Assembly (NCBI GenBank): GCA_009693335.1
Contig: SHXK01000002.1
Coordinates: 339 to 64,338, forward strand
Reading direction: 5' to 3'
Source of the DNA: Betaproteobacteria bacterium
GTDB taxonomy: Bacteria; Pseudomonadota; Gammaproteobacteria; Burkholderiales; SG8-39
Length of the DNA stretch: 64,000 nucleotides
In this document: positions 30,399-48,892 of the stretch, piece after piece
Layout of the letters: every line of letters begins with the position of its first letter
How positions within the stretch are numbered: position 1 is the first letter of the stretch
The notes under the pieces: model-generated
Database searches by the model: none
Told to the model about the DNA's origin: nothing
What the model saw: only the letters and a program-made list of their open reading frames with translations
Made by a program: the position numbers and the translations under genes

Positions 30399-31658
30399 CA
30401 CCCGCAGCGGCAGCGACTTCATGCCGCGGAACACCATGGAATTAAGCCACTCGAGGCGCGCCTCGGCTACCGAGAGCTCGATGCGTGGCCAGTGCTTCAG
30501 CACCGCAGGCAACGCCACCTGGCCTTCCATGCGCGCGAGCGGAAAACCAAGGCAGATATGCAGGCCGAAGCCGAAACTCAGGTGCGCGGGTCCGCCGCGC
30601 GCCAGCTGCAGCCGGTCAGGCTGCGCATAGACCTCGGGGTCGCGGTTGGCGGCGTTGAGCATCAGGAACACCCGCTCGCCGGGCTGCAAACGCTTGCCAC
30701 ACATTTCCTGCTCGACCTTGACGATGCGCACCTGCGCGCCGCTCGGCCCGTCGTAGCGCAACAGCTCTTCGATGGCGCGCGGCGCAAGGCTCGCATCCTG
30801 GCGCAGGGCCTGCAACTCTCCGGGAAAACGCAACAACGACAGCATGCCGTTGGCGATGTGGTTGGTGGTGGTCTCGTGGCCGGCGAACAGCAGCAGGATG
30901 CAGGTTGCGATCAGCTCGTCTTCTGTAAGCCGGTCGCCGTTGTCTTCGAGATGAACCAGTTGCGACAACAGGTCTGACCTTGGCGTTTTCTTTCTGTCCT
31001 GGATGAGTTCGCGAAAAAAATCTGCCATCTCGTGCGTCGCGGCCTCGGCGATAACGTACTTCTCGGGCGACATGCGCGAGCTGCCAATGAACAGCGCCAT
31101 GTCGTCCGACATGCGCTTGACCTTCGCCAACGCCTCGCGTGGCACGCCCAGCATCGACATGATCACGAGCGCGGGCAAGAGGCCCGCGAAATCGGCGATG
31201 AAGTCGATCTCGCCGGTGTCGCCGATGCGCTCGCGTATGTTTCCGAACAGCCACTCGACCAGCTCTTCGGCGGTCGAGCGCATGGCATTCATCGACTGGA
31301 GATGGAATACCTTGCTCGTCAGGCGGCGCAGCCGCGTATGTTCCGGCGGGTCGCGGAAAACCATCCAGGTCGACAAGTAACGAATGATGTCGCCGATGCG
31401 CGCCGCTTCCGCGCTCGGCAAGGTGGCAAAGAACGGCCGCATCCGGTCCGACGAAACTCCGGGCTCGAGCAGCACCTGGCGCACATCATCGTAACGCGTC
31501 AGCACCCAGGCCTTGAGGCGCGGGCTCCAGTGCACCGGGTCCTCTTGCCGCAAGCGGTGGTAAAGCGGGAACGGGTCGGCGAGGAATTCCGGTGCCTCGG
31601 GACGAAACTCGATGTTGCTCTTGACCTCCACAACCTGCGGACCAATACGGGGACTCAT
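30390..31658 (-). CDS. Cytochrome P450
   Basis: Heme-thiolate loop FGFGLHICLGFPLA, the I-helix LLFAGHETTTN and the ExxR motif (ELLRYD). Confidence 0.92.
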   Translation of the reverse strand: MSPRIGPQVVEVKSNIEFRPEAPEFLADPFPLYHRLRQEDPVHWSPRLKAWVLTRYDDVRQVLLEPGVSSDRMRPFFATLPSAEAARIGDIIRYLSTWMVFRDPPEHTRLRRLTSKVFHLQSMNAMRSTAEELVEWLFGNIRERIGDTGEIDFIADFAGLLPALVIMSMLGVPREALAKVKRMSDDMALFIGSSRMSPEKYVIAEAATHEMADFFRELIQDRKKTPRSDLLSQLVHLEDNGDRLTEDELIATCILLLFAGHETTTNHIANGMLSLLRFPGELQALRQDASLAPRAIEELLRYDGPSGAQVRIVKVEQEMCGKRLQPGERVFLMLNAANRDPEVYAQPDRLQLARGGPAHLSFGFGLHICLGFPLARMEGQVALPAVLKHWPRIELSVAEARLEWLNSMVFRGMKSLPLRVGY

Positions 31659-32623
31659 TCTCCCTTGATGCTCGCGTCCTTGACCAGCTTGGACCAGCGC
31701 GCCAGGTCCTCCCGTATCAGGGTGGCGAATTCCCCTGGGGTGCTCCCGCGCACGTCGAACAACTGCGCCTCGAGCCTCCCGCGCACCTCCTCGGTCTTCA
31801 GCGCTGCCTCCAGCACCGCGTTGAGACGCTGCACAATCGCCGGTGGCGTACCCGCGGGGGCGAGCAGGCCGAACCAGATGTCGGCGTTGTAGCCTTCGAA
31901 GCCGGCCGATTCAGAGATCACCGGCGTGGCGCTGTCCACTTTGGAACGGGTCGGCGAGGCGAGCGCCAGCACCCGCAGCCGCCCGCCCTTCGCCTGCGCG
32001 CTGGTGTTGGTGATGGTGTTGAACAGCACCGGCACCTGCCCTGAGACGCCATCGACGATCGCCGGCGCGCAGCCACGGTAGGGCACGTGCAGGATCTCCA
32101 CCTTGGCCACGTGTTTGAACAACTCTCCGGCGAGATGCATCGCCGAGCCGTTGCCGCAAGAGGAATAGCTCAGCTTACCCGGCTGCGCGCGCGCCATGGC
32201 CACCAGCTCGGCCACGCTCTTTGCCGCAAACGACGGGTGCACGGCGAGCGCCACCGCGGTCGAACCCACGGTGCCGATGGGGGCGAAATCCTTCACCGCG
32301 TCGTAGGGTGTCTTGCCCAACGAAGGCGCGGTGACCACGGTGTTGTTCGCCACCAGGATGGTATAGCCATCGGCAGCCGCTTTGGCCCCCAGATCGATGC
32401 CGATGACACCGCCGGCGCCGGTCTTGTGCTCGAGTACGATCTGCTGCCCGAGCAACTCCATCATTCTGGGCTGCAGGATGCGCGACACCAGATCGGTGCC
32501 GCCGCCGGGTGGGAACGGCGAAATGAAGCGGATCGGCCTGGACGGATAGGCTTGCGCTGCGGCACTCGCGCTGACAAACATCAGTGCGGCGCATAAAACG
32601 CCGGAAAAAAACCTTCGCATCAT
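31655..32623 (-). CDS. Bug family (TctC-like) periplasmic substrate-binding protein
   Basis: Signal peptide then YPSRPIRFISPFPPGGGTDLVSR. The stop overlaps the P450 start (ATGA). Confidence 0.88.
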   Translation of the reverse strand: MMRRFFSGVLCAALMFVSASAAAQAYPSRPIRFISPFPPGGGTDLVSRILQPRMMELLGQQIVLEHKTGAGGVIGIDLGAKAAADGYTILVANNTVVTAPSLGKTPYDAVKDFAPIGTVGSTAVALAVHPSFAAKSVAELVAMARAQPGKLSYSSCGNGSAMHLAGELFKHVAKVEILHVPYRGCAPAIVDGVSGQVPVLFNTITNTSAQAKGGRLRVLALASPTRSKVDSATPVISESAGFEGYNADIWFGLLAPAGTPPAIVQRLNAVLEAALKTEEVRGRLEAQLFDVRGSTPGEFATLIREDLARWSKLVKDASIKGE

Positions 32624-34314: not shown

Positions 34315-35226
34315 GTGAATACCTTCGCCGCTTCGCCGATTCCTGCCCAGCATAGGCACGGCATCGCCGTGCTGGTGCTGTGCACCTTCCTTTGGAGCAC
34401 AGCGGGCCTGGTCACGCGCGCTTCCTCTGTCACCAACGGCTGGGAGGCGGCATTCTGGCGCTCGTTGTTCCTCTGCGCGGTAATTACAGCGCTGATGCTC
34501 GCGCAGCACCGCGGCGGCGCCGCGCGCAGGCTGGTGACCATGGGATGGCCGGGATTTGTCTCCAGCCTAGCCTGGGCGACGATGCTTACCTGCTTCATGC
34601 TCGCGCTTAGCCTCATTACCGTCGCGAACGCGCTGCTCATGATGGGAGTGCTGCCGTTCTGCGCGGCGATCGCGGGCCGGCTGTTCCTGCGCGAAAGCGT
34701 CCCGACGCACACCTGGATTGCAATTGGCGGCGCGGCGGCCGGCATCGGCGTGATGTTTCACGACGCGCTGCGTTCCGGTAACTTCGCCGGCAGCCTGATT
34801 GCCCTCGCGGTGCCCGTCGCGGCCGCAGTCAACACCGTGGCGGTCAAGCTGGGGCGCGGCAGGGTGGACCTGGTGCCCGCGCTGCTGCTTGGTGGAGCGA
34901 TTTCGGTCCTGATCGCCTGGCCCATGGTCGGGCCGTTCAGCGCTGCGCCGCAGGACCTGGCGCTTTATGGCGCACTCGCGGTTTTCCAGCTGGCGCTGCC
35001 GTGCATTCTCCTGGTACGGGTGGTGCTGCCACGCCTGAGCGCAGTCGAGGTCGGGCTTCTGTCGTTGCTGGAAGTAGTTCTCGGACCGCTTTGGGTCTGG
35101 CTTGCGCTGGGCGAGAAACCCGCAAGCGCGGTCGTCACAGGAGGACTGGTGGTGCTTGCGGCAGTGGCGGTGAACGAGGGCATCTCCCTCGCGATAGAGC
35201 GGCGTCAGGCGGCGCCAGGGAGCTAG
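34315..35226 (+). CDS. DMT superfamily (EamA-type) transporter
   Basis: About 10 hydrophobic helices forming two EamA-like halves. GTG start. Confidence 0.8.
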   Translation: MNTFAASPIPAQHRHGIAVLVLCTFLWSTAGLVTRASSVTNGWEAAFWRSLFLCAVITALMLAQHRGGAARRLVTMGWPGFVSSLAWATMLTCFMLALSLITVANALLMMGVLPFCAAIAGRLFLRESVPTHTWIAIGGAAAGIGVMFHDALRSGNFAGSLIALAVPVAAAVNTVAVKLGRGRVDLVPALLLGGAISVLIAWPMVGPFSAAPQDLALYGALAVFQLALPCILLVRVVLPRLSAVEVGLLSLLEVVLGPLWVWLALGEKPASAVVTGGLVVLAAVAVNEGISLAIERRQAAPGS

Positions 35227-36668
35227 GGCAGAAGAACGATCGAACCGCTAGTACGCCGCGCCTCGAGGTCGCGGTGCGCCTCGGCGGCGGCCGCCAGCGG
35301 ATAGCGATGGTGCAACTCCACGCGTATCGTCTGCTCCCGCAACGCCTTGAAGACATGGCCGGCGATTTCCTGCAGCACGGCGCGCTCCGCGGTGTAGTGG
35401 AACAGCACCGGCCGCGACAGCGTGCCCGATTTCGAACTCAGATCGGGCTGCGCGTGGTGCGGCCCGCTCGCCTGGCCGTAGCAGACCCAGTGGCCGGTGA
35501 AGGCGAGCGCCTCCAGGTTCTCGGCCGCCGCCTCGCGCCCGAGACCGTCGTAGATCACCTCCGCCCCTCGGCCGTTGGTCAGGTTCTTCACCTCGCGCGC
35601 GAAGCTGTAGTTGCCGGTAACGATGGGGAAGTCGCAACCGTTGGCGCGCGCGCGACGTGCCTTGTCCTCGCTGGAAACGGTGCCGATCACTTTCGCACCC
35701 AGCCCCTTCGCCCACTGGCACAGCAGCAGGCCGACGCCGCCCGCTGCGGCGTGCACGAGCACGTTCTGCCCCGGACGCAGCCGGTGCGTGCGGTGCAGGA
35801 GGTACTCTGCGGTCATCCCCTTTAGCATCACCGCCGCCGCCATCTCGTCGCTCACCTCGTCCGGGAGCACCACTACCTGATCCGCGGGCATCGTGCGCAC
35901 GGTCGCATAAGCGCCAGGCAGTGAGCAGGCATAGGCAACACGGTCGCCCGGTAACAGGTGGGCGACACCCGTGCCAACGTCCTGCACGACTCCCGCCGCC
36001 TCCATGCCAATCGCCGCCGGCGGCTCGATCATGCGGTAAAGCCCCTTCCTTATATAGACGTCGATGTAATTCACCCCGATTGCCGTCTGCCGAATGCGCA
36101 CTTCGTTGTGCCCGGGCGCGCTTGCTGTAATGGGTTCGAAGCTGAGCACCTCAGGCCCGCCGAACGCTTTCACTACGATTGCCTGCGCCTGGAGGGCGTC
36201 GGCTGTGGCAGCCGGGCGCGAAACGTTGCCACCGCGACGCAGGAAAGCCCTCAGTCCTTCGAATCCGCTCTCGTAGACGCCCTTCCCCACCAGCTCCTCG
36301 AATTCCTTCTCACGCCCGCGCGGCACCTCGAAGGTGGACTGCCAGTGCCAGAACGTGCGCTCGCCGTCGGTAACCGGCTTCAGCTGCACCGTCGCCACAT
36401 AGCGCTGCATCGGCAGCGTGGCGTCGAGAATGCAATAGGTCGAAACATGGTCGCGGTCGGAGAGCGCCAGCAACTGCTCGCGGAGGTGGTTGCCGTCCTT
36501 GAGGAAGAAGTTGCGCACGCAGCCGACCTGATCGGCGGGCTCGCCATTTTCGATCTTCGATTCGCCGACCGCTGGATGCCAGGCCGAGTGGCTGTTGAAG
36601 TTGCGCAGCACCTCCCACACGCGCGCGATCGGCGCATCAATGACCGCGGAGCGCGTGACCCGAATCAT
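35223..36668 (-). CDS. SRPBCC domain fused to NADPH:quinone oxidoreductase (MDR/Qor family)
   Basis: Residues 1 to about 150 are paralogous to the neighbouring SRPBCC protein. The rest is Qor-like (VKAFGGPEVL, GVNYIDVY, nucleotide loop HAAAGGVGLLLCQWAK). Confidence 0.85.
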   Translation of the reverse strand: MIRVTRSAVIDAPIARVWEVLRNFNSHSAWHPAVGESKIENGEPADQVGCVRNFFLKDGNHLREQLLALSDRDHVSTYCILDATLPMQRYVATVQLKPVTDGERTFWHWQSTFEVPRGREKEFEELVGKGVYESGFEGLRAFLRRGGNVSRPAATADALQAQAIVVKAFGGPEVLSFEPITASAPGHNEVRIRQTAIGVNYIDVYIRKGLYRMIEPPAAIGMEAAGVVQDVGTGVAHLLPGDRVAYACSLPGAYATVRTMPADQVVVLPDEVSDEMAAAVMLKGMTAEYLLHRTHRLRPGQNVLVHAAAGGVGLLLCQWAKGLGAKVIGTVSSEDKARRARANGCDFPIVTGNYSFAREVKNLTNGRGAEVIYDGLGREAAAENLEALAFTGHWVCYGQASGPHHAQPDLSSKSGTLSRPVLFHYTAERAVLQEIAGHVFKALREQTIRVELHHRYPLAAAAEAHRDLEARRTSGSIVLLP

Positions 36669-36727: not shown

Positions 36728-36780
36728 AGGGACAGACCACGATTTCCGCCGCAGCGCGCTGGAAATCGTGGTCTGTCCCT
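36728..36780 (-). terminator. Perfect 20-bp inverted repeat (long hairpin) at the 3' end of the SRPBCC gene
   Basis: AGGGACAGACCACGATTTCC, a 13-nt loop, then GGAAATCGTGGTCTGTCCCT. On the minus strand it is followed by GATTTTGCGG, and it overlaps the stop codon at 36779..36781. Confidence 0.55.
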
Positions 36781-37216
36781 AATTCCTGAGCAGGGATTTG
36801 AGGGAGTTGAAGGCGGCCTGGAACACGCCCTGCCCGATCTTCTGCGCGAGCTCCTTTTCCCTCTCCGGCGCGCAGTCGAACTCGGCTGACCACTCGGCGA
36901 AGGTGTGGTTGCCGTCGGTCACCGGCGTGAGCTTGAGCGTGGCGACGTAGTTCGCCACGCTCATCGGGCTCTCCAGGATCGAATAGCTGCACTGATAGTC
37001 GTAGTCTGACAACGTCAGCAGCTGCTCGCGGATCACCCCGCCATCCTTGAGCCGGAAGTTACGCACGCAGCCAATCTTGTCGGCGGCAAGTTCGCCCTCG
37101 ATGCGTGACTCGGCGACGAAGGGCGTCCACTTCGGCAGGCCGTTGAAATCGCGCAACTGCGCCCACACCGCGTCGGCGGGCGCTTCGATCACGCTCGAGG
37201 TGTAGACCTTGATCAT
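36779..37216 (-). CDS. SRPBCC family protein (polyketide cyclase/dehydrase-like ligand-binding fold)
   Basis: 145 aa, roughly half identical by eye to the N-terminal domain of 35223..36668 (VGCVRNF-LKDG--REQLL-LSD, YVAT--L-PVTDG). Confidence 0.8.
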   Translation of the reverse strand: MIKVYTSSVIEAPADAVWAQLRDFNGLPKWTPFVAESRIEGELAADKIGCVRNFRLKDGGVIREQLLTLSDYDYQCSYSILESPMSVANYVATLKLTPVTDGNHTFAEWSAEFDCAPEREKELAQKIGQGVFQAAFNSLKSLLRN

Positions 37217-37220
37217 CGCG

Positions 37221-38936
37221 TTATTGGCTCCGTGACGGCTTGTCTTCGCTCAGCGCGGGCACAGCCTGTCCCTTTTCCAGCATGCTGCGCGCGACTTTGC
37301 CGATGTCGCCGCCGTCGACGCCGATCTCGCGTAGCAGCTGATCCACCAGTGGCGCTTGCGCGCGGAACCGCAGCGCCGAGTTGACCACGCTGTCGGCGAG
37401 CGAGACATCGCCATTGCCACCGCCATGGCCAATACCGCCAGAATTTCCCCCGCCCCCCAAGCCATCAACTTGCAGGATGCGGATCCCTTCGATGCGCTCC
37501 ATGGGCTTGACTGACTCGCGGATGATTCCTTCCATCTTGTCGATCAGCCGTATGCGCATCGCCGACATCCTCGCTTCGGGCGTGAGGACGTTCTGCGCCT
37601 GGTTCATCAGCCGCTGGCCCTCGGCTTCCACCTCGTGCCGGATCTTCGCGGCGATGGCGCTGATTTTCTCGGCATCTGCCTGTGCCTCGGCATTAGCCCG
37701 CACCGCCGCGCCGCGGTCGCTCGCCGCTACCTTCTCAGCTCCGGCCGCCACGGTGATGCGCAGCGCATCGCGCTCGGCCTCCTGCGCCGCGGCGATGAGT
37801 TCGATCTTCTTGCGCCGCTCAGCTATCTCGGTTTCGCGCGCGGTAAACACCCGCTCTTCCTCTGTCGTTGCCTTGGCGCGGGCCTGGTCGGCGGCGGCCT
37901 GCGCCTCGGACTGGGACTTGGACTGCTGGGCGACTGCGATGGCGCGCTGCTGCTCGGCGAGCTCGATCGACTTGCGGCGCTCGATCTCCATGGCCTGCAC
38001 GTCACGTTCCTTGGCAATACGCTCCTCCTCGACCGCGCGCTCGGCAACGATGCGCGCCCGGTCGACCGCCTCCCGCGCCGAGATCTGCGCACGCTCGGTT
38101 TCCTGCTCCTTGTGGGCGCGATCGCGCGCCACGTCTGATTTCTGCGCCGCGCGCTGCGTTTCGACTGCGCGCTCCTGGTCCAGACGCGCGGTTTCCAGTT
38201 CCCGGTCGATGTCCAGGGCTTGACGCTCAGTCTCAAGATTCTTGTTGCGGATCTGGATCATGGTGTCCTGCTCGATGTCGTTCCTCGTCTTCTTGCGCCG
38301 TTCGATCTGCTCGGTGAGCCTGGTGAGGCCTTCGGCGTCGAATGCGTTGGAGGGATTGAAGAACTCCATCGCGGTTTGGTCAAACTGGGTCAGCGACACA
38401 GTCTCCAGTTCGAGGCCGTTCTGCAGCAGGTCGGCCGCGACCACGGCGCGCACACGCTTCACGTATTCGCCGCGCTTCTCGTGCATTTGCTCCATGGTCA
38501 TTTCTGCGGCCACCGTGCGCAGCGCATCCACGAATTTTCCTTCGACCAACTCTTTCAGGGTTTCTGGCTGCAGGGTGCGCTGGCCGAGCGTCTGCGCCGC
38601 CGAGGCGATCGCATCGGGGCTCGCCTGCACGCGCACGTAGAATTCGCCGGTCACATCCACCCGCATGCGGTCGTGGGTGATGATCGCCTTGTCCCGGCCG
38701 CGCGAGACTTCCAGCCGCAGCGTGTTCATGTTCACCGGCACCACCTCGTGCACGATCGGCAGGACGAAGGCACCGCCGTTCATCACCACCTTTTGGCCAC
38801 CGAGGCCGGTGCGCACAAAGGCCCGCTCCTTCGAGGACCGCAGGTACAGCCAGTTGAGCAGCCAGACCACGATGGCGATAACAATAGCGACCGCGATCAG
38901 GCCGAGAATGAATTGTCCGAATTGCGATCCGCTCAT
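37221..38936 (-). CDS. Flotillin family (SPFH/band 7, YqiK-like) protein
   Basis: N-terminal TM helix, SPFH core ([20 protein letters not shown]...) and a long Ala/Glu/Arg-rich coiled coil. ATGA overlap with the upstream gene. Confidence 0.88.
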
Positions 38937-39775
38937 GACGCACTCCTTGCTTTGATGCTTCTGAACTTTCTGGTGGTTTCGGTGATGGCCCGTTCCGTTG
39001 GCAAGCGCTCCATGCTGGAGGCACCGTAGAAGCCGTTGCAGGCCGGGCAGTTCCTGAGAATGAAGCTGGCGTCCTTGGGCTCAGCGATCGGCCCGCCGTG
39101 GCACAAAACGATCACCTCGGGGCTGACCGCGCGCGCCGCCGCTGCCCAGCGCTCGATCAGCGGCACGCAATCCTTCAGCTTGCGCGCGGTCCCGGCACCG
39201 ATTGCGCCGCCCGTAGTGAGGCCAAGGTGGCAGACGATGATGTCAGCGCCCGCTTTCGCCATGTCGCGCGCATTGTCCTCTGAGAACACGTAGGGCGTCG
39301 TCAGCAGAGCCAATTCACGAGCTGTCTTGATGACTTCCACTTCCAGCGCATAACCCATGCCGGTCTCCTCGAGCTGAGCGCGGATCGTGCCGTCGAACAA
39401 CCCCACCGTGGGAAAGTTCTGGATGCCAGAAAAACCAAGCTCGCAAAGGGTCTTTAAGAAGTGTTCTTTTATTAGAAATGGATCAGTGCCATTGACGCCC
39501 GCCAGCACGGGCGTCCGCTGCACCACCGGCAGCACTTCGCGCGCCATGTCCAGCACGATGTCGTTGGCGTTGCCGTAGGCCATCAAGCCCGCTAGCGATC
39601 CGCGGCCCGCCATGCGGTAGCGGCCCGAGTTGTAGATTACGATCAAGTCGATGCCGCCCGCCTCCTCGCATTTCGCGGACAGTCCGGTGCCGGCGCCGCC
39701 GCCAATGATGGGTTCGCGGCGCTTCACCTTAGCGCGCAGTTTCTTCAAGATCTCGTCGCGCGGGATGCGGGCCAT
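38933..39775 (-). CDS. Phosphoenolpyruvate hydrolase-like TIM-barrel protein (partner of UPF0261/Tm-1-like proteins)
   Basis: [57 protein letters not shown] is the typical N-terminus of this family. Confidence 0.8.
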
Positions 39776-41946
39776 GCGCCCTGTCCTTCCTTTTTCTCGA
39801 TCTCCCGGAAATTCGCCGCCAGTGCGGCCGCGAATGCGGGGTCGTTGATGTGGTGAGGCAAGCGAAGCAGTTTTCTGCTTGCGCTGGCAATGAAATCCTT
39901 GGCAATCGAATCGAACAGCGCCTTGTCCGCCGCCGGGTCCCAGAACGGGCCATTAGGCTGGTCCAGACCCGAGACGCCGCCCTCGGGGATCAGGAACCTG
40001 ACCGGGCCTTCCATGCGATTGAGTTTGGCGGCGATGAAACCACCGATCTTGGTGTTCTCATCCGGTGTGGTGCGCATCAGCGTTACATTGGCGTTGTGGT
40101 GGTGCAAGCGCCGGCCGCGGAACGGTGCCGGCACCGTGTCCATGGCCCAGAAATTCACCATGTCGAGCGCGCCACAGGAGCCGACGTAAGGTACGCGCGC
40201 GCGCGCGATGGTGTCCATGCGCTGCGGGCCCGCGCTCAGCACTCCACCCACCACCTCATCGGCGATCTCGGTGGTGGTGACATCAATCACTGCCGACAGC
40301 AGTCTCGATTCCACCAGTTTTTCCATCGACTGGCCCCCGGTGCCGGTGGCATGGAACACGATGCAGTCATGGTCCGCCTCCAGCAGCGGCGTCAGGGCCT
40401 GCACGCAGAGCGTGGTCAGACCGAACATGGTTATGCCGATGGCCGGTTTTGTATCGACCGCAACCTTGTCTTTAGCCGAATACGCGATCATGCCGGCGAG
40501 CGCATGCGCGGCGTTTGCCAGCACTTTCTCGGATATGCGATTGATGCCCGCAACGTCGGTGACTGAATACATCATGCAGATGTCGGCGGGCCCAACGTAG
40601 GGCTTGACATCGCCGGAGGCCACCGTCGAGACCATCACCTTGGGCACGCCGACGGCCAAGCGCCGCATCGCTTGGGTAGCGAGCGCGGTATTGCCCGAGC
40701 CGCCGGCCGAAATCAAACCGCCTAGGTCGCGCCTGCGGGCGATGAAATGCTCGAAAGCCAGCGCCATCTCAGTGACCGCGCTACCGCGCTCACCAGTGAA
40801 CACCGCCCGTTCGCCCTGCGGATGGCAGCGCGCCACTTCGCGCGGATGCACCATCGCGGCGGAGGGCTTGCCCGAGGTGGAGATATCCACGGTCACCACG
40901 CGCAGGCCGAGCTTCTCAATGCAAGTGCGCAGATAGCCCAGTTCCCGGCCCTTGGTGTCGAAGGTGCCCGCGACATAGGCGGCGCGCCCGGCGCTCGCGG
41001 CCACTGGAAACTCGACGACTTTGGGTTCGTTTGCTTTTGCTTTCTGTGCCTCTTTTCCAGCGGACTCCTCAAGCGGACGATCGACATCCACCGATCCCCA
41101 GCGGGTGTAGCCGCGCACCGCGCGCGGCTCAGGCGCCGGCTCCGGGACTTGGGCGCCTGCGGCCCTTTTTACCGTGTATACCCTGACCTCTCCCGCCACC
41201 TGGGACTGGGCCTCCGGAGCGGCTTCTTCTTCCTCTGCGGCTCTCACCCCCAGTAGCCGCTGCTGCAAGCTACGGTCCCCGGCAAGTTGGCTCACCGGCA
41301 TCGAGCGCGCGATGCGCCCGTTCACCATTACATCCACGGTATCCGCCACCGCAATGGCGACGCCCAGATTCTGCTCAATCAGCAGCACCGAAATCTCGCC
41401 ATCGGCCACCAGCGACTTGAGCATCGCCTCAACTTGCTGCACGATCACCGGCGCTAGACCCTCGGTGGGCTCATCCATCACCAACAGCTTTGGCTTAAGC
41501 AGGAGCGCGCGCGCGATGGCGAGCATCTGCTGCTCACCGCCCGAGAGCTGCGCGCCGCCATTGGCTTTTCTTTCGGCGAGCCTCGGGAATGTCGCGTAGA
41601 TGCGCGCTACGGTCCATGGTCCATTGCTGTTCTTCCCTCTTGAGGACAGCAAAAGATGCTCGTGAACCGTGAGCGACGACCAGACGCGCCGGCCTTGCGG
41701 CACGTAGGCCACCCCCAGGTCGGTGATACGGTGGGGTGCGAGGCCCAAGATCTCCTTGCCGAACAAGCGCACGCTGCCGGTCGCACGGATCAGGCCGGTC
41801 AGCGCGTTACAAAGCGTGGTCTTGCCCATGCCATTGCGGCCTACAACAGCGCGCACGCCCTGGTCCAGGGCCAGAGAAACTTCCTGCAGCGCGTGAGCGC
41901 GGCCGTAGTGGACGTCCAGTTTTTCGATCACCAGAACAGGACTCAT
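39745..41946 (-). CDS. Fusion protein: LivF-type ABC ATPase (N-terminal) + Tm-1-like/UPF0261 ATP-binding domain (C-terminal)
   Basis: Residues 1 to about 235 carry Walker [10 protein letters not shown], signature [15 protein letters not shown] and Walker [11 protein letters not shown]. An acidic/Pro-rich linker of about 85 aa follows. From about residue 320: [14 protein letters not shown]...[10 protein letters not shown]...MVSTVASGD (UPF0261 pattern). Confidence 0.85.
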
Positions 41947-42722
41947 GCGTGCCCCGCCTGGCCCATGTAAATTTCCTGCACCTCAGCATCGTTCTCGATC
42001 TCGGCTGGCGTACCTTCCTTCAGCATCCGGCCGTTGTGCATCACCGTGACGCGGCTCACCACCCGCAACGCGATTTCAAGATCGTGTTCAATGAGGATGA
42101 AGCTCATGTGCGCGGGCAGCGCGGTCAACAGCGCCACCAACTCGCGGCGCTCGGCGAGCGACAGCCCGGCGGCCGGCTCGTCGAACAGGATCAGGCGCGG
42201 CGCGCCGGCCAGCGCCATGCCGATCTCCAGTTGGCGCTGTTGGCCGTGCGACAGCGAGGCGACGGACTCATCGCCCACGTGCGTCAAGCGCACGCGCTCA
42301 AGAATGTCTTCGGTACTCTGGCTTTTCCCGGACCTGCGGAAACTGAAACGACCGCGGGAAACGCCCCTCACGGCAAGAAACAGGTTGTCCCGCACCGTGA
42401 GATCGCGGAACAGTAACGAAGACTGATAGGTGCGCCGCATGCCCGCCCGGATGCGCTCGTAGGGCGGGTGTGCGGTCACGTCGTCGCCGAAAAAGCGCAC
42501 GCGGCCGGCGCTGGCCGCGTAGTCGCCCATGATCACATTGAACAACGTAGTTTTGCCCGCACCGTTGGCGCCGATCACCGCCCTGCGCTCACCCGCGGCG
42601 ACCGAGAATGAGAAGTTCTCGACCGCCCTGAGTGCGCCAAAGCTGCGTGACACGCCCTCCAACCGGAGTGCGTCCCCGGTCGAGAGCAGTTCGCGCGGCT
42701 GCAGTTCGGCGATCGATGCCAT
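41943..42722 (-). CDS. ABC transporter ATP-binding protein (LivG type)
   Basis: [38 protein letters not shown] overlap with the downstream fusion gene. Confidence 0.9.
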
Positions 42723-42743: not shown

Positions 42744-43988
42744 CTAGGGGCAACTCGGCTCGTCGCGCGAACCCATCTTGAAGTCTTCCTTCTTGATGCC
42801 CAGTGTCTGATCGATGCCATCAACTTTGCGCAGGACTTTGTTGAACAAATTACCCTTGGCATCTTTCACCACTTCCGTGACGAAGGTGGAGCCGATCGCC
42901 TGGCGGTTCGAGTCCAAGCGAACTTCTCCCACCGGGGTCTTCAGGACCATTTTCTGCAGCGCCTCGCGGTACTTCGCCTGGCCGCCGGAAAGATCGCCCT
43001 TGACCGCGTCCAGCCCATCCAGCGCCGCTTTCATGTTGATGTAGTACACGAGGGCAAACAGCGACGGGCTCGGATAGCCGCCGGCCGACACCGGGTAGTT
43101 CTTCTGGTAGTCGGCGACGAAGGCCTTGAACTCGGGCGCGTCGTAGGCGTCGGCAATTGGCGAGCCGGCAATGGTGCCGACCAGCGAGTCCCGGCGCTTG
43201 CCCTTGTAGTTGAGGATGTCCTGGCTGACCGTGATCGATCCGCCGACCATCGGCTTGTTACCGCCGGAGGCCTCGTACTGGTTGAGGAAGTTCACGGCAT
43301 CGGCACCGCCCAGTACCACCACCAATGCGTCCACGTCATTGGGGATGCGCGCGATCACCGACGAGTAGTCCTTGCCGCCCAGTGGCACCCAGGCCTTGAC
43401 CGGCACCTTGCCGCCCAAACGGCAGTACTCGGACATAAAGCCCTGCACCTGCGAGTACGGGAAAGCATAATCCTCGGCGATCACCATCACCCGCTTGTAG
43501 CCCTTGTCGAGCGCCGCCTTGCCCAGGCCCACCATCCACTGCGCGCCTTCCGTGTTGAAGCGGAAGAAGTTCTGCGAGGGATTGACCAGCGTAGCCGCTT
43601 GCGCACCTGAAGAGCCATTGATGAAGGTGATGTTGGGCTGGGTCTTGGAGTAGTCCTTGACCGCGATGCCCTCGCCACCCGAGAGCGGGCCGACCATGAT
43701 GTCGACCTTATCCTGCTCGACCAGTTTTCGCGTTGCGTTCACCGCGACGTCGGGCTTGGCGTCAGACGAGGCCTTGATGAGCTCGATCTTCTTGCCACCG
43801 GCCATGCCGTTGCGCTGCTTCAATGCCAGTTCGGCGCCGCGCATACCGTCCGCGCCGCCGGCAGCGAACGGGCCTTCTAGGGTGGCCAGCAGCCCGATTT
43901 TCACGGTCTGCTGCGAATACACCGCTCCGGAGAACGCGGCCAGAACGGCCGCGCCCACCAGCGTGTGGACAAACGCTCTTTTCTTCAT
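42744..43988 (-). CDS. ABC transporter periplasmic substrate-binding protein (LivK/amide-urea cluster)
   Basis: Signal peptide then VKIGLLATLEGPFAAGGADGMRGAELAL. Type I periplasmic binding fold pattern. Confidence 0.9.
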   Translation of the reverse strand: MKKRAFVHTLVGAAVLAAFSGAVYSQQTVKIGLLATLEGPFAAGGADGMRGAELALKQRNGMAGGKKIELIKASSDAKPDVAVNATRKLVEQDKVDIMVGPLSGGEGIAVKDYSKTQPNITFINGSSGAQAATLVNPSQNFFRFNTEGAQWMVGLGKAALDKGYKRVMVIAEDYAFPYSQVQGFMSEYCRLGGKVPVKAWVPLGGKDYSSVIARIPNDVDALVVVLGGADAVNFLNQYEASGGNKPMVGGSITVSQDILNYKGKRRDSLVGTIAGSPIADAYDAPEFKAFVADYQKNYPVSAGGYPSPSLFALVYYINMKAALDGLDAVKGDLSGGQAKYREALQKMVLKTPVGEVRLDSNRQAIGSTFVTEVVKDAKGNLFNKVLRKVDGIDQTLGIKKEDFKMGSRDEPSCP

Positions 43989-45085
43989 CTGCTATCTCCT
44001 CTAGGGGTTAAGGACTTCGATCTACTCGCAAAACGCAACTTCAAGGCCGCCCACAAGCCAAGCAGGCCGTCCGGCGAAAACAACACGATGGCAAGGAACA
44101 CGCCGCCAATCACGAGGTTGAAACGCTCGCGGTCGATCAGGTCGATGGCGAAGGTCTGCAGCAGCACGAACACGACGGCGCCAATGAAAGGGCCGACCGG
44201 ATGGCGCAGGCCGCCGAGTACCGCGATGATGAGGATATTGATCAGCCAGCTGGTGCCGGCCGAGTTGGGCGTGATCAGGCCGTTGTACCAGACCAGCAGC
44301 ACGCCGCCAACCGCAGCCAGGATGCCAGCTACCGCATAGGCCGCGATGCGGTGCGCGGTGACATGGAAGCCGAGCGCATTCATGCGGCGCGGATTGTCGC
44401 GGATGCCCTGCAAGGCGACCCCGAATGGCGCGCGCAGCAGGTACTTGATAAAGAAATAGCCCGCCAGCGACCAGAACAGCACCAAGTGGTAGAACGGCAA
44501 GGGGTCGCGCCAGTTGATGCCCAATAGTTTCGGCGGATGGACCTGCTGGAAACCCTGGAATCCATTGAATATGGAGTAGTTCTGCAAGCACAGATAGTAG
44601 AACGCGACCCCAACCGCCAGCGTGATCATGATGGTATAGATGCCTTCGGTGCGCACCGATAGCCAGCCGATAAAGGCGCCGGCAAGGGTCGCGATGGCAA
44701 TCGCCAGCGGCACCACCACCCACCAAGGCCAACCGAGGCTGATTTCCGGGGTGCCGCTGGTGCCGAGGATACCGACCATATAACCCGCCACACCGGCCAC
44801 TGTCATCTGCGCCAACGAAATCATGCCGCCGTAGCCGCCAAGAAAGGTAAGCGACAAGGCAATCAGACCGAGCGTCAACGATTGCGCGCCGACCTGGAAG
44901 GTAAGGAACGGCGTCGCAATCCACGGAAAGACCAGTAACGCGGCGAGAACCAAGACGTGGCGCACGCGAATGGGATTTTGAAATGAATGTGCTGTTACTT
45001 GAGGTCTTGGCGCCGCCACGGATTTGCCCATGGCAAGACGGCCAGAACCCGCATTCATGGCATTGCGCCACTCGGCTGCGCTCAT
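43985..45085 (-). CDS. Branched-chain-type ABC permease (LivM-like)
   Basis: Polytopic membrane protein. ATGA overlaps at both ends. Confidence 0.82.
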   Translation of the reverse strand: MSAAEWRNAMNAGSGRLAMGKSVAAPRPQVTAHSFQNPIRVRHVLVLAALLVFPWIATPFLTFQVGAQSLTLGLIALSLTFLGGYGGMISLAQMTVAGVAGYMVGILGTSGTPEISLGWPWWVVVPLAIAIATLAGAFIGWLSVRTEGIYTIMITLAVGVAFYYLCLQNYSIFNGFQGFQQVHPPKLLGINWRDPLPFYHLVLFWSLAGYFFIKYLLRAPFGVALQGIRDNPRRMNALGFHVTAHRIAAYAVAGILAAVGGVLLVWYNGLITPNSAGTSWLINILIIAVLGGLRHPVGPFIGAVVFVLLQTFAIDLIDRERFNLVIGGVFLAIVLFSPDGLLGLWAALKLRFASRSKSLTPRGDSR

Positions 45086-46029
45086 GCCGCCTGCCCCAGG
45101 ATGCCGCGCGGGCGGAAAGCCAGCACCAGCACCAGGATCACGAAAGTGAACACCACACTGTAGGTCGGCGCGTAGGCGAGGCCGTAAGTTTCGGCGACCC
45201 CGAGGATGATCGCGCCGACCCCCGCTCCGACCACGCTACCCATGCCGCCCACGATCACCACGATGAGGGAGGCGAGCAACAGGCGCACATCCTCGCCCGG
45301 CACCATCGAGAGCTCGACCGCGCCGATGACGCCGCCGAAGCCGGCCAGGCCGGCGCCAATGGCGAAGGTGGCGGCGAACACTAGGTTCACATTGACCCCG
45401 GTGGCCGCAAGCATGGCGCGGTCATCCACGCCGGCGCGGATCATCATGCCGACGCGGGTGCGGTTCAGGAACAGCCACAGCAGCACACCGATGATGAGAC
45501 CCAGCGGCAGCAACGCCATGCGGTACTTTGAATAAGCCGTGATCAGAGGAATATCGCGCAGGGGTCCGACCAGCCATTCCGGCGCGCTCATCTGGTGCAC
45601 CTGCGCGCCGATTCCCCACATTAGCAGGTCGGCGATGACGATCGACAGACCGATGGTCACCATAGTCTGGCGCAGGTCCTCGCCCTGCATGCTGCGGAAG
45701 ATCGCTACCTGCATCAACAAGCCCACCAGCGCCGCGACCAGGAACCCAGCGATGAGCGCCAGCAGGAAGAAACCGGTCATTTCGGCGACAAAGTAACCGA
45801 CGTAGCCGCCCAGCAGATAGAGCGAGCCATGCGCGAGGTTGACGTTGCGCATCAGGCCGAACACCAGCGTGAAGCCGCTGGCGACGATGAAATACAGCGA
45901 CGCCAGCGTGAGGCCGTTGAGCATCGTGATGAAGAACAGCTTGGTGTTGTCCCAGATCGCCCAGACGGCAAAGACCGCTAGCGGCACCACCAGCACCAGG
46001 CTCCAGAACCATTTCCAAAAACGGCTCAT
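45082..46029 (-). CDS. Branched-chain-type ABC permease (LivH-like)
   Basis: LNGLTLASLYFIVASGFTLVFGLMRNVNLAHGS is a typical LivH N-terminal pattern. Confidence 0.9.
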   Translation of the reverse strand: MSRFWKWFWSLVLVVPLAVFAVWAIWDNTKLFFITMLNGLTLASLYFIVASGFTLVFGLMRNVNLAHGSLYLLGGYVGYFVAEMTGFFLLALIAGFLVAALVGLLMQVAIFRSMQGEDLRQTMVTIGLSIVIADLLMWGIGAQVHQMSAPEWLVGPLRDIPLITAYSKYRMALLPLGLIIGVLLWLFLNRTRVGMMIRAGVDDRAMLAATGVNVNLVFAATFAIGAGLAGFGGVIGAVELSMVPGEDVRLLLASLIVVIVGGMGSVVGAGVGAIILGVAETYGLAYAPTYSVVFTFVILVLVLAFRPRGILGQAA

Positions 46030-46048: not shown

Positions 46049-47338
46049 TCACGCGGCGCTCTGGCTCCAACGGGTACGGGCGGAATGGATTTCAGGCGCC
46101 TTGTGGAACTGGCCGTCTTTCATGATCGCGAGCAGCTTGGCCGGCTGTTGCAGGATCGCAATATTCGACAGCGGGTCGCCGTCCACCAGCAGCAGGTCGG
46201 CAAGCCAGCCTTCCCTGATCTCGCCCAGCTCCTTGCCTTTCATCATCATCTGCCCACCCCAGCGCGTGCAGGAGACGAGGACCTCCATCGGCGTCATGCC
46301 CAGGTACTTGACGAAATACTCCAGATCCTTGGCGTTCTCGCCGTGCGGCGCCCAGGCGAAACCGTAGTCGCCGCCGGGCAGCACCCGGATACCACGCTTG
46401 AGCATCGCTTTCATGCTGTTCACCGCGGCCTCGAGCTCCAACTCGTAGCCCATCTTCTTGGCGATCTGGTTGGTGATGCCGACGACCTCGCCCTCGTGCA
46501 GCAGCCGGATGATCACCGACAGGGCGGGAGCGACGAAAATCCGGTCCTTCTGCGCTTCCAGCAGATCGAGCGCCTCTTCGTCGGCGAAGCTGGCGTGGTA
46601 GATGATCTCGAAGCCGTGCCGCATGGCCTGCTTGATTGACTCCGAGGAACGCGCGTGGCAGGACAGGCGCTTGCCGCGCACCTTGGTTTCCCGGGCCGCG
46701 ATCGCCACTTCCTCGTCACTCATCCAGGTGGTCTTGGCGTCGGCGCCCGGGACCAGGTTGTCACCCGAAAGGTTGAGCTTGATCGAGTCGACGCCGTACT
46801 TGAGGAACATGCGTACTGCCTTGCGCATCTCCTCTGGCCCGTCCACCACGCAACCGAACGACATCTCCGGGTACGGCAGGTGCGGCAGCATGTCGTCACC
46901 GAGCGACCCGGTGACGGTGATCTCCTGGCTCGCGGCCAGATAGCGCGGCCCGGGAATCTGCCCGGAGTTGATGGCATCGCGGATCACGCAATCGAGGCGC
47001 GGCTTGGGCGTCGCCGCGCCTACGCAGGAGGTCCAGCCGCAGTCGAGGTATTGCTTCGCCACCTGCGCCGCCCAGAGCGTGTGCTCTTCGTGCGGCATTT
47101 TCTGGATCGCGTCGAGTGTGGTGGAGTTGGTCCAGGCGAGATGGGTGTGCGCCTCAGTCATGCCCGGCATCAGCGTGGCGCCGGCGGCGTCGATCGCCGT
47201 CACCCCGGCGACCGGCAAGCTGCGCGCACCGCGGCCGATGCGCGAGATGCGATTGCCCTGAATCAAGACTTCACCCGCGTAAGGCTGCGCGCCCGTACCG
47301 TCGATGATGCGGACATTAGTGAACAGGGTATTCGCCAT
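46049..47338 (-). CDS. Metal-dependent amidohydrolase family protein
   Basis: The listed ORF was trimmed to the ATG at 47338. N-terminus FTNVRIIDGTG...LMPGMTEAHTHL (HxH metal motif). Confidence 0.85.
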   Translation of the reverse strand: MANTLFTNVRIIDGTGAQPYAGEVLIQGNRISRIGRGARSLPVAGVTAIDAAGATLMPGMTEAHTHLAWTNSTTLDAIQKMPHEEHTLWAAQVAKQYLDCGWTSCVGAATPKPRLDCVIRDAINSGQIPGPRYLAASQEITVTGSLGDDMLPHLPYPEMSFGCVVDGPEEMRKAVRMFLKYGVDSIKLNLSGDNLVPGADAKTTWMSDEEVAIAARETKVRGKRLSCHARSSESIKQAMRHGFEIIYHASFADEEALDLLEAQKDRIFVAPALSVIIRLLHEGEVVGITNQIAKKMGYELELEAAVNSMKAMLKRGIRVLPGGDYGFAWAPHGENAKDLEYFVKYLGMTPMEVLVSCTRWGGQMMMKGKELGEIREGWLADLLLVDGDPLSNIAILQQPAKLLAIMKDGQFHKAPEIHSARTRWSQSAA

Positions 47339-47348
47339 GAGTTTCCCC

Positions 47349-48137
47349 TTATAAAAAGCGTTGAGAATAAAAACGACCCAGCAACTCGCTGCACTCTTGC
47401 GGCTTCTCGTAGACGGTCCAATGCCCGCAACGACCAAGCACCTCGATCTGTGCGCCCGGGATCTTCTCGCCGATAGCGCGCACTGCCTGCGGTGGCGACA
47501 CGGAATCTTCATCGCCGGTGACCAGCAGCACCGGGCAGGCAATCTTCGACAAATCGGCGGACTGCGCCTCCGACAGCGCCTCGCAACTGCGCGCATAGCC
47601 CTCCGGGCACTGCCGCATGAGCGATTCACGCACCGCCGCCACCGTCACCGGACGCCTGGTACGCGTCTCGCTCGAAGTCGCCGCTTGCACGATCGCATCG
47701 GCGATCTGCTGCATGCCGGGTTCGCCGTCGCTGCGCGCTTTCGCACCGCGCGCCCGGATCGACCCGCGACTCGCATCCGTCGGCGCGCTGAGCGGACCAA
47801 ACAAAGCCAGGCTGCGCACCAACCGGGGCTCGAGCGCAGCAAGTTGCAAGGCGATGATCGTGCCCATCGAGTGCGCAACCACGTGGGCGCGTTCGACGCC
47901 GGCTGCGCCACAGACACGCATCAGCGCGCGCACGAAACGGTCCATGGATAGCGCACCCTCGACCCGGTGCGAGCGGCCCGATCCCGGCAGATCCGGACGC
48001 ACGGTGCGAAAACGAGCTAACGCCGGCAGCACCGGCGTCCAGAAGTTGGAGGTGCCGCCCAAGCCGTGGATCATGAGCACGGCATCGCCGGCCCCGTCGA
48101 TCTCGACGGCCACGCGCTCGACAAACAGGGTGCTCAC
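47349..48137 (-). CDS. Alpha/beta hydrolase (enol-lactonase-like)
   Basis: HGLGG oxyanion region and nucleophile elbow VVAHSMGT, with a C-terminal His (CGHW). GTG start. Confidence 0.85.
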   Translation of the reverse strand: MSTLFVERVAVEIDGAGDAVLMIHGLGGTSNFWTPVLPALARFRTVRPDLPGSGRSHRVEGALSMDRFVRALMRVCGAAGVERAHVVAHSMGTIIALQLAALEPRLVRSLALFGPLSAPTDASRGSIRARGAKARSDGEPGMQQIADAIVQAATSSETRTRRPVTVAAVRESLMRQCPEGYARSCEALSEAQSADLSKIACPVLLVTGDEDSVSPPQAVRAIGEKIPGAQIEVLGRCGHWTVYEKPQECSELLGRFYSQRFL

Positions 48138-48256: not shown

Positions 48257-48892
48257 ATGCAAAACAGCGCCACTTCCGTCTACGCCCTGCCCGATCTGGG
48301 TCAGGGACACCGCGGGCGCGTGTTCCGACGCCTCCTGGATGAGGTTGTGGCCCTAGTGCGACGGGGACGCATCCCCTCGGTGGCCGAAGTGGCTCTCGCC
48401 GCCAAGGTTTCCCGCGCCACCGCCTATCGTTACTTTCCCAGCCGCTCCAAGCTGGTGAGCGCCGTCATCGCCGAGGTGCTCGCGCCGGTGCGCCGCGCGG
48501 TGCCGCAGCAGGGCGAGCCGAAGCAGCGGCTGCGCGAGCTGCTTAAACGCACCTATTCCCGCTTCAGCGAATACGAGCCCCACATGCGGGCGGCGCTGCA
48601 GCTTGCCCTGGAGCACACGTCGCTGGAGGCCGCCGGCCTGCTGGAAGAGGAGCCCTTCCGCCGCGGTCAGCGCCAGGAGATCCTGAAAGTCACCCTCGCG
48701 CCGCTACGGGCTAAGCTCCCACCCAGAACATGGAACCGGCTGCTGAAGGCACTTGCGGTGGTGTATGGAATCGAGTCCATGATTGTTCTCAAGGATATCT
48801 GCGGCGCGAGCGACCGCGAGACCGAGGCGGTGGTGGGCTGGATGATGGACGCGCTGGTGGACGCGGCGCTACGGGATAAAATCAAGAAGTGA
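48257..48892 (+). CDS. TetR/AcrR family transcriptional regulator
   Basis: N-terminal HTH SVAEVALAAKVSRATAYRYFPSRSKL. Confidence 0.85.
   Translation: MQNSATSVYALPDLGQGHRGRVFRRLLDEVVALVRRGRIPSVAEVALAAKVSRATAYRYFPSRSKLVSAVIAEVLAPVRRAVPQQGEPKQRLRELLKRTYSRFSEYEPHMRAALQLALEHTSLEAAGLLEEEPFRRGQRQEILKVTLAPLRAKLPPRTWNRLLKALAVVYGIESMIVLKDICGASDRETEAVVGWMMDALVDAALRDKIKK

Follow-up and report, generated by a model that had tools for sequence, protein, structure and literature searches.

An ABC importer ATPase fused to a UPF0261 domain in an operon with a PF09370 TIM barrel and a flotillin

The locus and the fused gene

The DNA analyzed here (the window) is a stretch of 64,000 nucleotides of contig SHXK01000002.1 (positions 339 to 64,338), which belongs to a metagenome-assembled genome (MAG) of a Betaproteobacteria bacterium from soil (order Burkholderiales, assembly GCA_009693335.1). 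Its subject of interest is a single open reading frame (ORF) of 733 amino acids at 39745..41946 on the minus strand, in which the nucleotide-binding domain (NBD) of an ATP-binding cassette (ABC) importer (residues 1-233) is joined through a linker (234-319) to a UPF0261 domain (320-719). This gene is the seventh of an operon of 11 tightly packed minus-strand genes that encode, in order, an alpha/beta-hydrolase, an amidohydrolase, a LivH-type permease, a LivM-type permease, a binding protein, LivG, the fusion, a triosephosphate isomerase (TIM) barrel protein, a flotillin, an SRPBCC protein, and an SRPBCC domain fused to an NADPH:quinone-reductase-like enzyme. The same 11-gene order was found again in approximately 25 species-level genomes. 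A first-pass annotation of the window had described the fusion and the TIM-barrel gene that follows it; the 11-gene operon, the linker motifs, and the strict co-occurrence with a flotillin were absent from it. The parts of the fusion and its partner gene are the following.

41248..41946, minus strand: LivF/UrtE-type ABC nucleotide-binding domain, fusion residues 1-233 (ABC_tran 8e-26, confident in the AlphaFold2 model)
40990..41247, minus strand: linker, residues 234-319, predicted to be intrinsically disordered, with conserved short linear motifs
41095..41124, minus strand: core linker motif, residues 275-284, with R275, T281, and W283 invariant in alignments of 124 and 62 fused homologs
39790..40989, minus strand: UPF0261 (Tm-1/MarK-type) two-subdomain ATP-binding, kinase-like domain, residues 320-719 (matches in Pfam, NCBIfam, PDB, and Foldseek)
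39745..39789, minus strand: disordered C-terminal tail, residues 720-733 and the stop codon (predicted local distance difference test score, pLDDT, below 50), overlapping the start of the TIM gene and its Shine-Dalgarno-like sequence
38933..39775, minus strand: PF09370 ('PEP_hydrolase') TIM-barrel partner of UPF0261 (Pfam 1.7e-128, 427.9 bits, profile positions 1-267 of 267)

Integrity and domain composition of the fusion

The Pfam scan placed ABC_tran at residues 20-161 (8e-26), the UPF0261 N-domain at 323-490 (5e-60), and UPF0261_C at 500-716 (1e-87). The AlphaFold2 model (mean pLDDT 76, predicted TM-score 0.54) comprised two confident domains, residues 1-233 and 320-719, and the boundaries previously drawn from the sequence agree with it to within a residue or two. 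Foldseek searches with this model retrieved no solved structure covering both halves together. The gene is translationally coupled on both sides: its start overlaps the LivG stop codon as ATGA, and at its other end the TIM gene overlaps it by 31 nt in a different frame, with a Shine-Dalgarno-like AAGGAAGGA upstream of the TIM ATG at 39775 and within these final 31 nt. In NCBI and nr the product of 39745-41946 is named 'ABC transporter permease', a misannotation for a protein that has no membrane domain, while automated pipelines label such proteins 'UPF0261 family / ABC-type branched-chain amino acid transport ATPase'.

The source of the window being a MAG, a frameshift or a mis-assembly that merged two genes had to be considered, and frame breaks in the corresponding gene of two long-read assemblies could be taken to point the same way. 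However, the identical 733-aa protein was called on five contigs (NCBI, Logan, and ENA), and the clusters retrieved by a protein search (at least 120, 70-84% identical at full coverage) all showed these same domains. The frame is unbroken in at least 124 aligned fused homologs despite linker lengths of 77 to 125 aa, and the linker motifs are conserved in frame. Because the same protein occurs on independent contigs and no frame break separates the two parts in 124 or more homologs, we consider an artefact excluded for all practical purposes. An exhaustive search of representatives added further full-length fused proteins, down to approximately 41% identity. As for the two long-read MAG assemblies, which belong to the fused clade (L027 9997-13058 and L030 10743-13767; L numbers denote the compared loci), the gene is split there into different frames; these breaks are probably indel errors, and they are open to being misread as natural unfused versions.

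The N-terminal part is a complete LivF-type NBD (ABC_tran 8e-26), as had been proposed. Walker A (GRNGMGKTT, residues 36-44), Q84, LSGGE (134-138), D158/E159, and Q192 at the switch position are all intact, and these motifs are invariant or nearly so in the alignment of 124 fused homologs. With the N-terminal half of the model, Foldseek retrieved the T. maritima ABC ATPase 1JI0 (TM-score 0.92 normalized to the target, root-mean-square deviation 1.9 Å). Fold, motifs, and switch glutamine are thus those of LivF/UrtE subunits (E. coli LivJ/K-HMGF, Urt; 1JI0), but canonical LivF/UrtE proteins end just after the NBD, whereas the window protein has 500 extra residues. The best NCBIfam matches were UrtE (209.3 bits, cut-off 285.8) and LivF (161.6 bits, cut-off 441); as both scores fall under the equivalog cut-offs, the NBD is LivF-type at the family level only, and the substrate is set neither as branched-chain amino acids nor as urea. 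The Pfam scan detected no TOBE/OB_MalK, MetN C2, or CBS regulatory fold after the NBD.

The remaining importer subunits are encoded directly upstream of the fusion.

41943..42722, minus strand: LivG/UrtD-type ABC ATPase, the partner NBD (Pfam ABC_tran and BCA_ABC_TP_C; best NCBIfam matches UrtD and LivG)
42744..43988, minus strand: periplasmic substrate-binding protein, Peripla_BP_6, with a signal peptide (Pfam 5e-53)
43985..45085, minus strand: LivM-type permease, BPD_transp_2 (Pfam 1.5e-41)
45082..46029, minus strand: LivH-type permease, BPD_transp_2 (Pfam 1.9e-35)

HAAT importers share this partner set, i.e., a LivG-type NBD with a BCA_ABC_TP_C tail, two BPD_transp_2 permeases, and a Peripla_BP_6 protein. 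The fusion holds the sole LivF-type NBD of the operon; as the only such subunit of a complete HAAT importer, it must therefore belong to the transporter. When compared to the PDB, the binding protein was closest to 4ZPJ (1e-33, an unannotated entry), followed by 4EVQ, 8TG1, and 4EY3 (~1e-20), and this second tier, in which we take R. palustris aromatic-acid binders to be included, outranks the entries named urea-binding and most of those named LIV-binding. These similarities may give a faint hint about the substrate.

The UPF0261 domain

Homology of the C-terminal region to UPF0261, which the first-pass annotation had left to a hidden Markov model search, was borne out by both Pfam domains (PF06792 and PF23189, 202.8 and 293.3 bits against cut-offs of 27) and by the full-length UPF0261 model of NCBIfam (NF002673, 596.7 bits against 520, residues 322-720). 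In the PDB the best sequence matches were tomato Tm-1 (3WRY, 6e-91, 308 bits) and MarK (9MPY, 1e-58, 202 bits), and Foldseek with the C-terminal half retrieved the same two proteins (3WRX, 3WRY, and 3WRW for Tm-1; 9MPY, 3e-32, for MarK). Tm-1 (PDB 3WRV-3WRY) is therefore the closest solved relative, and since the domain is nearer to Tm-1 than to MarK, it belongs to the TIM-paired subfamily.

MarK (Saro_1862) of Novosphingobium aromaticivorans is a stand-alone UPF0261 protein of solved structure (9MPY) that phosphorylates acetovanillone and other phenolics in an ATP-dependent reaction with release of ADP (Hall et al., J Biol Chem 2025, PMC12624787). Its H219 bonds the phenolic oxygen, its K16 corresponds to K20 of Tm-1, and it works as a homodimer that needs no TIM protein; its gene is linked to the acvCDEF carboxylase and phosphatase genes (PMC12624787). 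The earlier statement that the bacterial function of UPF0261 is unknown is thus outdated for stand-alone MarK (PMC12624787); it still applies to the TIM-paired (Tm-1-type) subfamily, which is uncharacterized. HpeHI/AcvAB were considered as UPF0261/TIM pairs and rejected, as they are shown in the MarK paper to be a different, AMP-producing dikinase family (PMC12624787).

Residues of MarK were placed on the window protein via the HMMER alignment. The fusion domain has the same two-subdomain fold over its full length, with the ATP-site triad D330/T331/K332 (MarK D14/T15/K16) present in all 124 fused homologs and G509 (G195), H532 (H219), and H617 (H304) in 123 of the 124 each. By contrast, four of the seven substrate contacts of MarK are changed (T196 to L510, F283 to M596, I285 to N598, and H348 to L661), and the substrate is therefore not acetovanillone. 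Judged from its sequence, the domain looks like a competent ATP-utilizing, kinase-type domain with a substrate other than that of MarK. The two proteins also differ in context, for MarK is stand-alone and soluble and has no link to a transporter, and the fusion operon has no biotin carboxylase or phosphatase genes.

The TIM-barrel partner

The gene at 38933..39775 had been described as the usual partner of UPF0261 and as 'PEP-hydrolase-like'. The partnership and the 31-nt overlap were confirmed (PF09370, 1.7e-128), and the match extends over the full profile; the phosphoenolpyruvate (PEP) hydrolase designation, on the other hand, is a label only, as the sole specific structural relative is the uncharacterized protein Mll9387 (2P10, 3e-120). 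This was the only significant PDB relative, and nothing past it was found in the sequence search at E values up to 10. Below 2P10, Foldseek with the model (pLDDT 76) listed PanB, methylisocitrate lyase, designs derived from indole-3-glycerol phosphate synthase, triosephosphate isomerase, and FMN enzymes, at TM-scores of 0.5-0.58. A firm placement in the PEP-mutase/isocitrate lyase superfamily was considered and dropped given that there were no sequence matches and only generic TIM-barrel folds. An analogy to the swivelling phosphotransfer of pyruvate phosphate dikinase was set aside in the mechanism proposed below.

Many of the invariant residues of the TIM protein fall in the four low-confidence loops of the model (residues 51-62, 124-127, 187-190, and 254-259), one of them rich in Arg (R52, R54, R58) and others in Gly; those at 124-127 and 187-190 come right after predicted beta-strands. 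On the basis of the model, these may be mobile ligand- or phosphate-binding loops. The location of the gene varies among relatives: it stands at the head of the cluster in a Stellaceae MAG (L014 1886-2803) and on the opposite strand, upstream of the permeases, in L064 (5963-6793). With the TIM gene displaced, the flotillin gene directly follows the fusion in both loci. Single-chain proteins combining UPF0261 and PF09370 probably exist elsewhere (P0166 and P0201, recognized by length only).

PF09370 was also found as the N-terminal sensor of a sigma-54 activator (AAA+ and a Fis-type helix-turn-helix) encoded just upstream of the transporter operon in Labrenzia sp. 011 (L034 4313-6061, unfused) and in a Rhodospirillales MAG (L023 3955-5778, fused); the window has a TetR gene in that place. 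Its use as a sensor domain suggests that this TIM fold binds a small molecule related to the pathway.

Distribution and origin of the fusion

The first-pass annotation had called for a search for the ABC_tran and UPF0261 architecture across genomes. In the reference-genome scan, fused loci were detected in Burkholderiales, in Rhodospirillales, Dongiaceae, and Stellaceae, in Methylomirabilota (Rokubacteria), and in one Acidobacteriota MAG. The fused state is shared by 124 or more aligned homologs and spans no fewer than three phyla, with several deep clades. Two unfused operons with the same HAAT importer were also found, one in the cultured Labrenzia sp. 011 (L034) and the other in a Propionicimonas MAG (L050). 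In both, LivF stops right after the NBD, and a separate UPF0261 gene (62 nt downstream in L034 and 15 nt in L050) precedes the TIM gene. These operons indicate that the fusion derives from a pre-existing livF-upf0261-TIM operon and that the link between transporter and enzyme predates the fusion. In a crude neighbor-joining tree built from the UPF0261 domains, the main fused clade comes out as monophyletic with an unfused clade as its sister, and Labrenzia groups with other fused representatives. This topology implies that genes have split again or that fusion took place more than once; the tree does not choose between a single fusion followed by fission and several independent fusions.

The sister clade (e.g., L039) carries UPF0261, TIM, and two SRPBCC genes in a row, divergent to a homologous amidohydrolase gene (48% identity) and an ABC importer of another family, with SBP_bac_1, BPD_transp_1 permeases, and MalK-type ATPases with OB_MalK and TOBE domains. 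As the module is paired there with a different importer family, it is linked to a substrate that is taken up rather than to the way in which any one transporter works.

Some divergent fused clades have a degenerate UPF0261 domain. Their NBD is intact and the TRW of the linker is kept, but the key residues are lost: DTK has become DTR or DVN, FHATG has become FAADG or FDP, and HHHN has become AEYA or CRVD. An alignment or frameshift artefact was rejected as the cause of these losses by full-length pairwise alignments. The TIM gene and the catalytic residues were lost jointly in L060-L063 and L067 and kept jointly in the main clade, L064, and L066; the gene is present even where it has moved (L014, L064, and L066), so that every fused locus whose UPF0261 residues are intact has it and no degenerate locus does. 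This joint loss and retention argues that UPF0261 and the TIM barrel act as one enzyme. Degenerate loci keep the flotillin and, where the contig reaches, two SRPBCC genes and a redox enzyme. In these clades the SRPBCC-oxidoreductase fusion is replaced by a free second SRPBCC gene, which is followed by a CoxLMS-type molybdenum hydroxylase.

The retention of the fusion in clades with a dead domain and no TIM gene implies a further role for the fused domain, one that does not depend on catalysis. UPF0261, with or without the TIM barrel, might even sense a nucleotide or a metabolite and gate the importer accordingly, for example through trans-inhibition or ATP-bridged binding of the NBD, and not be an enzyme acting on the cargo. 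The persistence of the fusion where DTK, the His residues, and the TIM gene are lost would fit a sensor, and C-terminal regulatory domains are common on the NBDs of ABC importers (MalK, MetN, ModC, and OpuAA). So would the use of PF09370 as the sensor of sigma-54 activators beside the operon, and the fact that the UPF0261 domain of Tm-1 was solved with a viral helicase (entries titled 'helicase complex'), its binding to the viral replication complex being bridged by an ATP molecule according to the MarK paper (PMC12624787). However, the catalytic-pocket residues shared with MarK are essentially invariant in the main clade, the module also occurs unfused, far from an NBD and beside a different importer family, the versions of Labrenzia and Propionicimonas have no tether, and Pfam detected no TOBE, OB, CBS, or C2-type fold in the fusion. 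On balance, we regard a purely gating role as unlikely. Metabolic channelling and gating, which had been put forward as two options, are not fully exclusive; in clades without catalytic residues and TIM gene the fused domain has a role other than catalysis.

The linker and the flotillin gene

In the AlphaFold2 model, the linker (residues 234-319) has a pLDDT below 50 and no secondary structure. It had been described as acidic and Pro-rich with a length of about 85 aa. The length is right; the composition holds only in part, since the linker also contains the invariant residues R261, R275, T281, and W283. After a variable acidic stretch come three motifs, TVKRA (257-261), R.VRGYTRWG (275-284), and RVVEFPVA (309-316). 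The four residues named are invariant in 62 fused sequences, and TRW is retained in fused relatives at 41-49% identity, including those in which the UPF0261 domain is degenerate. Crude, uncorrected ratios of nonsynonymous to synonymous changes (pN/pS) were 0.45-0.65 for the linker and 0.2-0.3 for both domains (the L031 row is invalid, as the wrong overlapping ORF was taken). By this sequence measure, the linker changes more quickly than either domain but is still under purifying selection. In L034 and L050, where LivF and UPF0261 are separate proteins, the linker is missing from both.

The flotillin gene follows the TIM gene in the window.

37221..38936, minus strand: flotillin, SPFH and Flot, with an N-terminal membrane anchor (Pfam Flot 3e-37, Band_7 2.5e-17), overlapping the TIM gene by 4 nt

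The protein (571 aa) has a hydrophobic N-terminus, Band_7 at residues 40-188, and Flot at 416-540; it scored 49 bits with the FloT equivalog model and did not reach its cut-off of 700. A flotillin gene adjoins all 28 fused loci whose sequence extends 3.5 kb or more downstream and none of the 11 truly unfused loci; the deeply divergent fused loci L060, L062, L064, L066, and L067 have one as well. Flotillins of the clade whose UPF0261 domain is degenerate are much longer (911-1142 aa versus 571 aa; L060 12201-15629 and L062 12213-14948) through expansion of the central coiled-coil region. They have no Pfam match in the precomputed annotation, and direct scanning gives SPFH and Flot.

A flotillin dependence of ABC importers has been described in Staphylococcus aureus, where the FhuC ATPase and IsdF depend on FloA microdomains (PMC10147376). 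A functional tie between a flotillin and an ABC importer with its ATPase subunit would be common to both cases, but in S. aureus the flotillin is a general scaffold encoded elsewhere, whereas here a dedicated flotillin gene lies inside the transporter operon and accompanies the fused ATPase gene without exception in the loci counted.

These patterns also bear on a simpler origin of the fusion, namely that the livF stop codon was lost and that the joined gene secures co-expression and rough membrane proximity only, with the enzyme working equally well when free. Gene fusions of this Rosetta-stone kind are common in bacterial genomes. Unfused operons of the same gene order without a linker make read-through of a short intergenic gap plausible, and a linker that is predicted to be disordered and evolves faster than the domains would be in keeping with it. 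This would not lead one to expect invariant R261, R275, T281, and W283, a TRW kept down to ~41-49% identity even next to a dead enzyme, a pN/pS below 1 that indicates purifying selection on the linker, a fused state in at least three phyla and in deep clades, or a flotillin count of 28/28 versus 0/11. A fusion of such limited consequence is accordingly, in our estimation, improbable.

Other genes of the operon

The other genes of the operon and its probable regulator are listed below.

47349..48137, minus strand: alpha/beta-hydrolase, PcaD-like or meta-cleavage-product-hydrolase-like, first gene of the operon (PcaD-type NCBIfam match below cut-off; PDB 2D0D and 1IUN, ~1e-24)
46049..47338, minus strand: Cc2672/ochratoxinase-type amidohydrolase, 429 aa (Pfam Amidohydro_1; PDB 3MTW, 1e-45, and 4C5Y, ochratoxinase)
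36779..37216, minus strand: SRPBCC (Polyketide_cyc2) hydrophobic-ligand-binding protein (Pfam 2.4e-26)
35223..36668, minus strand: SRPBCC domain fused to an NADPH:quinone-reductase-like oxidoreductase of the medium-chain dehydrogenase/reductase (MDR) type, last gene of the operon (Pfam; NF008024, 296 bits, below the cut-off of 348)
48257..48892, plus strand: TetR-family regulator, divergent (211-aa ORF; the same gene in L059 and L001 has a weak TetR_N match)

The divergent TetR gene is the probable regulator of the operon. A longer amidohydrolase ORF (46049-47629, minus strand, 526 aa, GTG at 47629) runs into the alpha/beta-hydrolase gene; the true start is almost certainly the ATG at 47338 (429 aa), as in L059 and homologs, and the longer ORF is probably spurious. 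Several related loci (L010, L013, L014, and L016-L018) have two tandem amidohydrolase copies. SRPBCC genes accompany UPF0261 and TIM in the fused clades as well as in their unfused sister, and the SRPBCC-MDR fusion is kept in most loci of the main fused clade. Genes flanking the operon (30390-31658 and 31655-32623, minus strand, in the window; L001; L059) vary among relatives and include p450, TctC, thiolase, TauD, and TRAP-transporter genes. Since the flanks differ between relatives, the 11-gene cluster behaves as a transferable cassette put into different neighborhoods.

Relation to known systems

The UPF0261/PF09370 pair occurs in bacteria, archaea, fungi, and plants and is the origin of the virus-resistance gene Tm-1. 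In tomato Tm-1 and the plant Tm-1-like proteins, UPF0261 and the PF09370 TIM barrel are paired within one polypeptide (PMC5028733). The pairing at the present locus is the same, but the two are encoded by separate overlapping genes and it is the N-terminus of UPF0261 that is fused, to an ABC ATPase; moreover, the known function of Tm-1 is the binding of a viral replicase and not metabolism.

MalK, MetN, ModC, CysA, and OpuAA resemble the fusion in that an importer NBD carries an extra C-terminal domain at the cytoplasmic face. Their appendages are small packed regulatory folds (TOBE/OB, C2, or CBS), whereas the domain described here is of enzyme type, has ~400 residues, hangs on a disordered tether of ~85 residues, and has a partner protein of its own. 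Uptake coupled to phosphorylation is found in group translocation by the phosphotransferase system (PTS) and in metabolic trapping, as in PnuC/NadR and GlpF/GlpK. By analogy, the proposal made below would share their logic, in which phosphorylation on arrival makes uptake effectively irreversible. The kinases of those systems are either part of a phosphorelay or separate soluble proteins, whereas the one proposed here would be covalently bound to the importer ATPase, and we know of no kinase-type domain described in such a fusion.

Literature searches on the fusion, on PF09370, and on flotillin with SRPBCC returned no description of the fusion, the linker motifs, the flotillin linkage, or the joint loss of TIM gene and catalytic residues. 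The HAAT importer, the UPF0261 kinase-type domain, the PF09370 barrel, and the flotillin are each of kinds already known.

Proposed role in import and modification

From the architecture, the intact motifs and their conservation, the operon structure, and the co-occurrence patterns, we infer an enzyme activity, a type of substrate, and physical contacts of the fusion with the TIM barrel and the flotillin. Specifically, we propose with a probability of about 50% that the fusion is a transporter-tethered, TIM-dependent, ATP-utilizing enzyme that acts on an imported compound. The complete HAAT importer (binding protein, two permeases, LivG, and fusion) would bring in a compound, which the amidohydrolase or the alpha/beta-hydrolase may cleave. 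The tethered UPF0261 domain and the TIM barrel would then use ATP on this compound or on a released fragment at the cytoplasmic face of the transporter, most likely by phosphorylating a hydroxyl group in the manner of a kinase, and such a modification would trap or activate the compound on entry. The SRPBCC carriers could hand the hydrophobic product to the quinone-reductase-like enzyme. The flotillin of the operon would probably scaffold the assembly in the membrane, and the linker motifs TVKRA, RGYTRWG, and RVVEFPVA would probably be docking sites.

The substrate would probably be a hydroxylated moiety, hydrophobic or aromatic in nature, that comes from a compound with an amide linkage. The chemistry of MarK, the constant SRPBCC partners, the second-tier matches of the binding protein, the carboxypeptidase/ochratoxinase type of the amidohydrolase, and the PcaD-like hydrolase each offer a slight hint in this direction.

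A number of observations weigh against this proposal. MarK is a homodimer without a TIM partner, whereas a LivG/LivF heterodimer would carry one UPF0261 domain, and the four changed substrate contacts set the domain further apart from MarK. Where the UPF0261 domain is dead, the fusion has been retained all the same, in the absence of catalysis. TIM barrel aside, the operon has no obvious enzyme that would consume a phosphorylated intermediate. The AlphaFold2 monomer showed neither docking of the linker nor docking between the domains, with the limit that a single chain was modelled. Finally, the co-occurrence with flotillin could in part reflect shared ancestry.

In a further extension of the proposal, the fused LivF-UPF0261 protein would be the dedicated client of the operon's own flotillin, and the linker motifs (RGYTRWG and its neighbors) would dock the importer, the TIM partner, and the SRPBCC carriers into a flotillin-scaffolded metabolon for import and modification. 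A scaffold role of this kind would explain why the fusion, the linker motif, and the flotillin persist where the enzyme has died; we nonetheless offer it as a tentative idea that is rather doubtful as it stands.

The fusion gives the UPF0261/TIM module a functional context, as the first-pass annotation had anticipated: through the importer operon, the TIM pairing, and the sequence and structure matches, a hitherto orphan pair is tied to a specific setting that comprises a single importer with its binding protein, an amidohydrolase, and SRPBCC carriers. Natural controls are available in the unfused operon of the cultured Labrenzia sp. 011, in the TIM-less clades with a dead domain, and in the sister clade with another importer family. 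As bacterial flotillins have few defined clients, a flotillin that strictly accompanies a fused transporter subunit makes a tractable model. If the proposal is true, an enzyme-type domain tethered to an importer ATPase would be a new way to couple uptake with chemical modification, and if its extension holds as well, these operons would encode a genetically hard-wired bacterial flotillin-client pair and an ABC-based analogue of group translocation.

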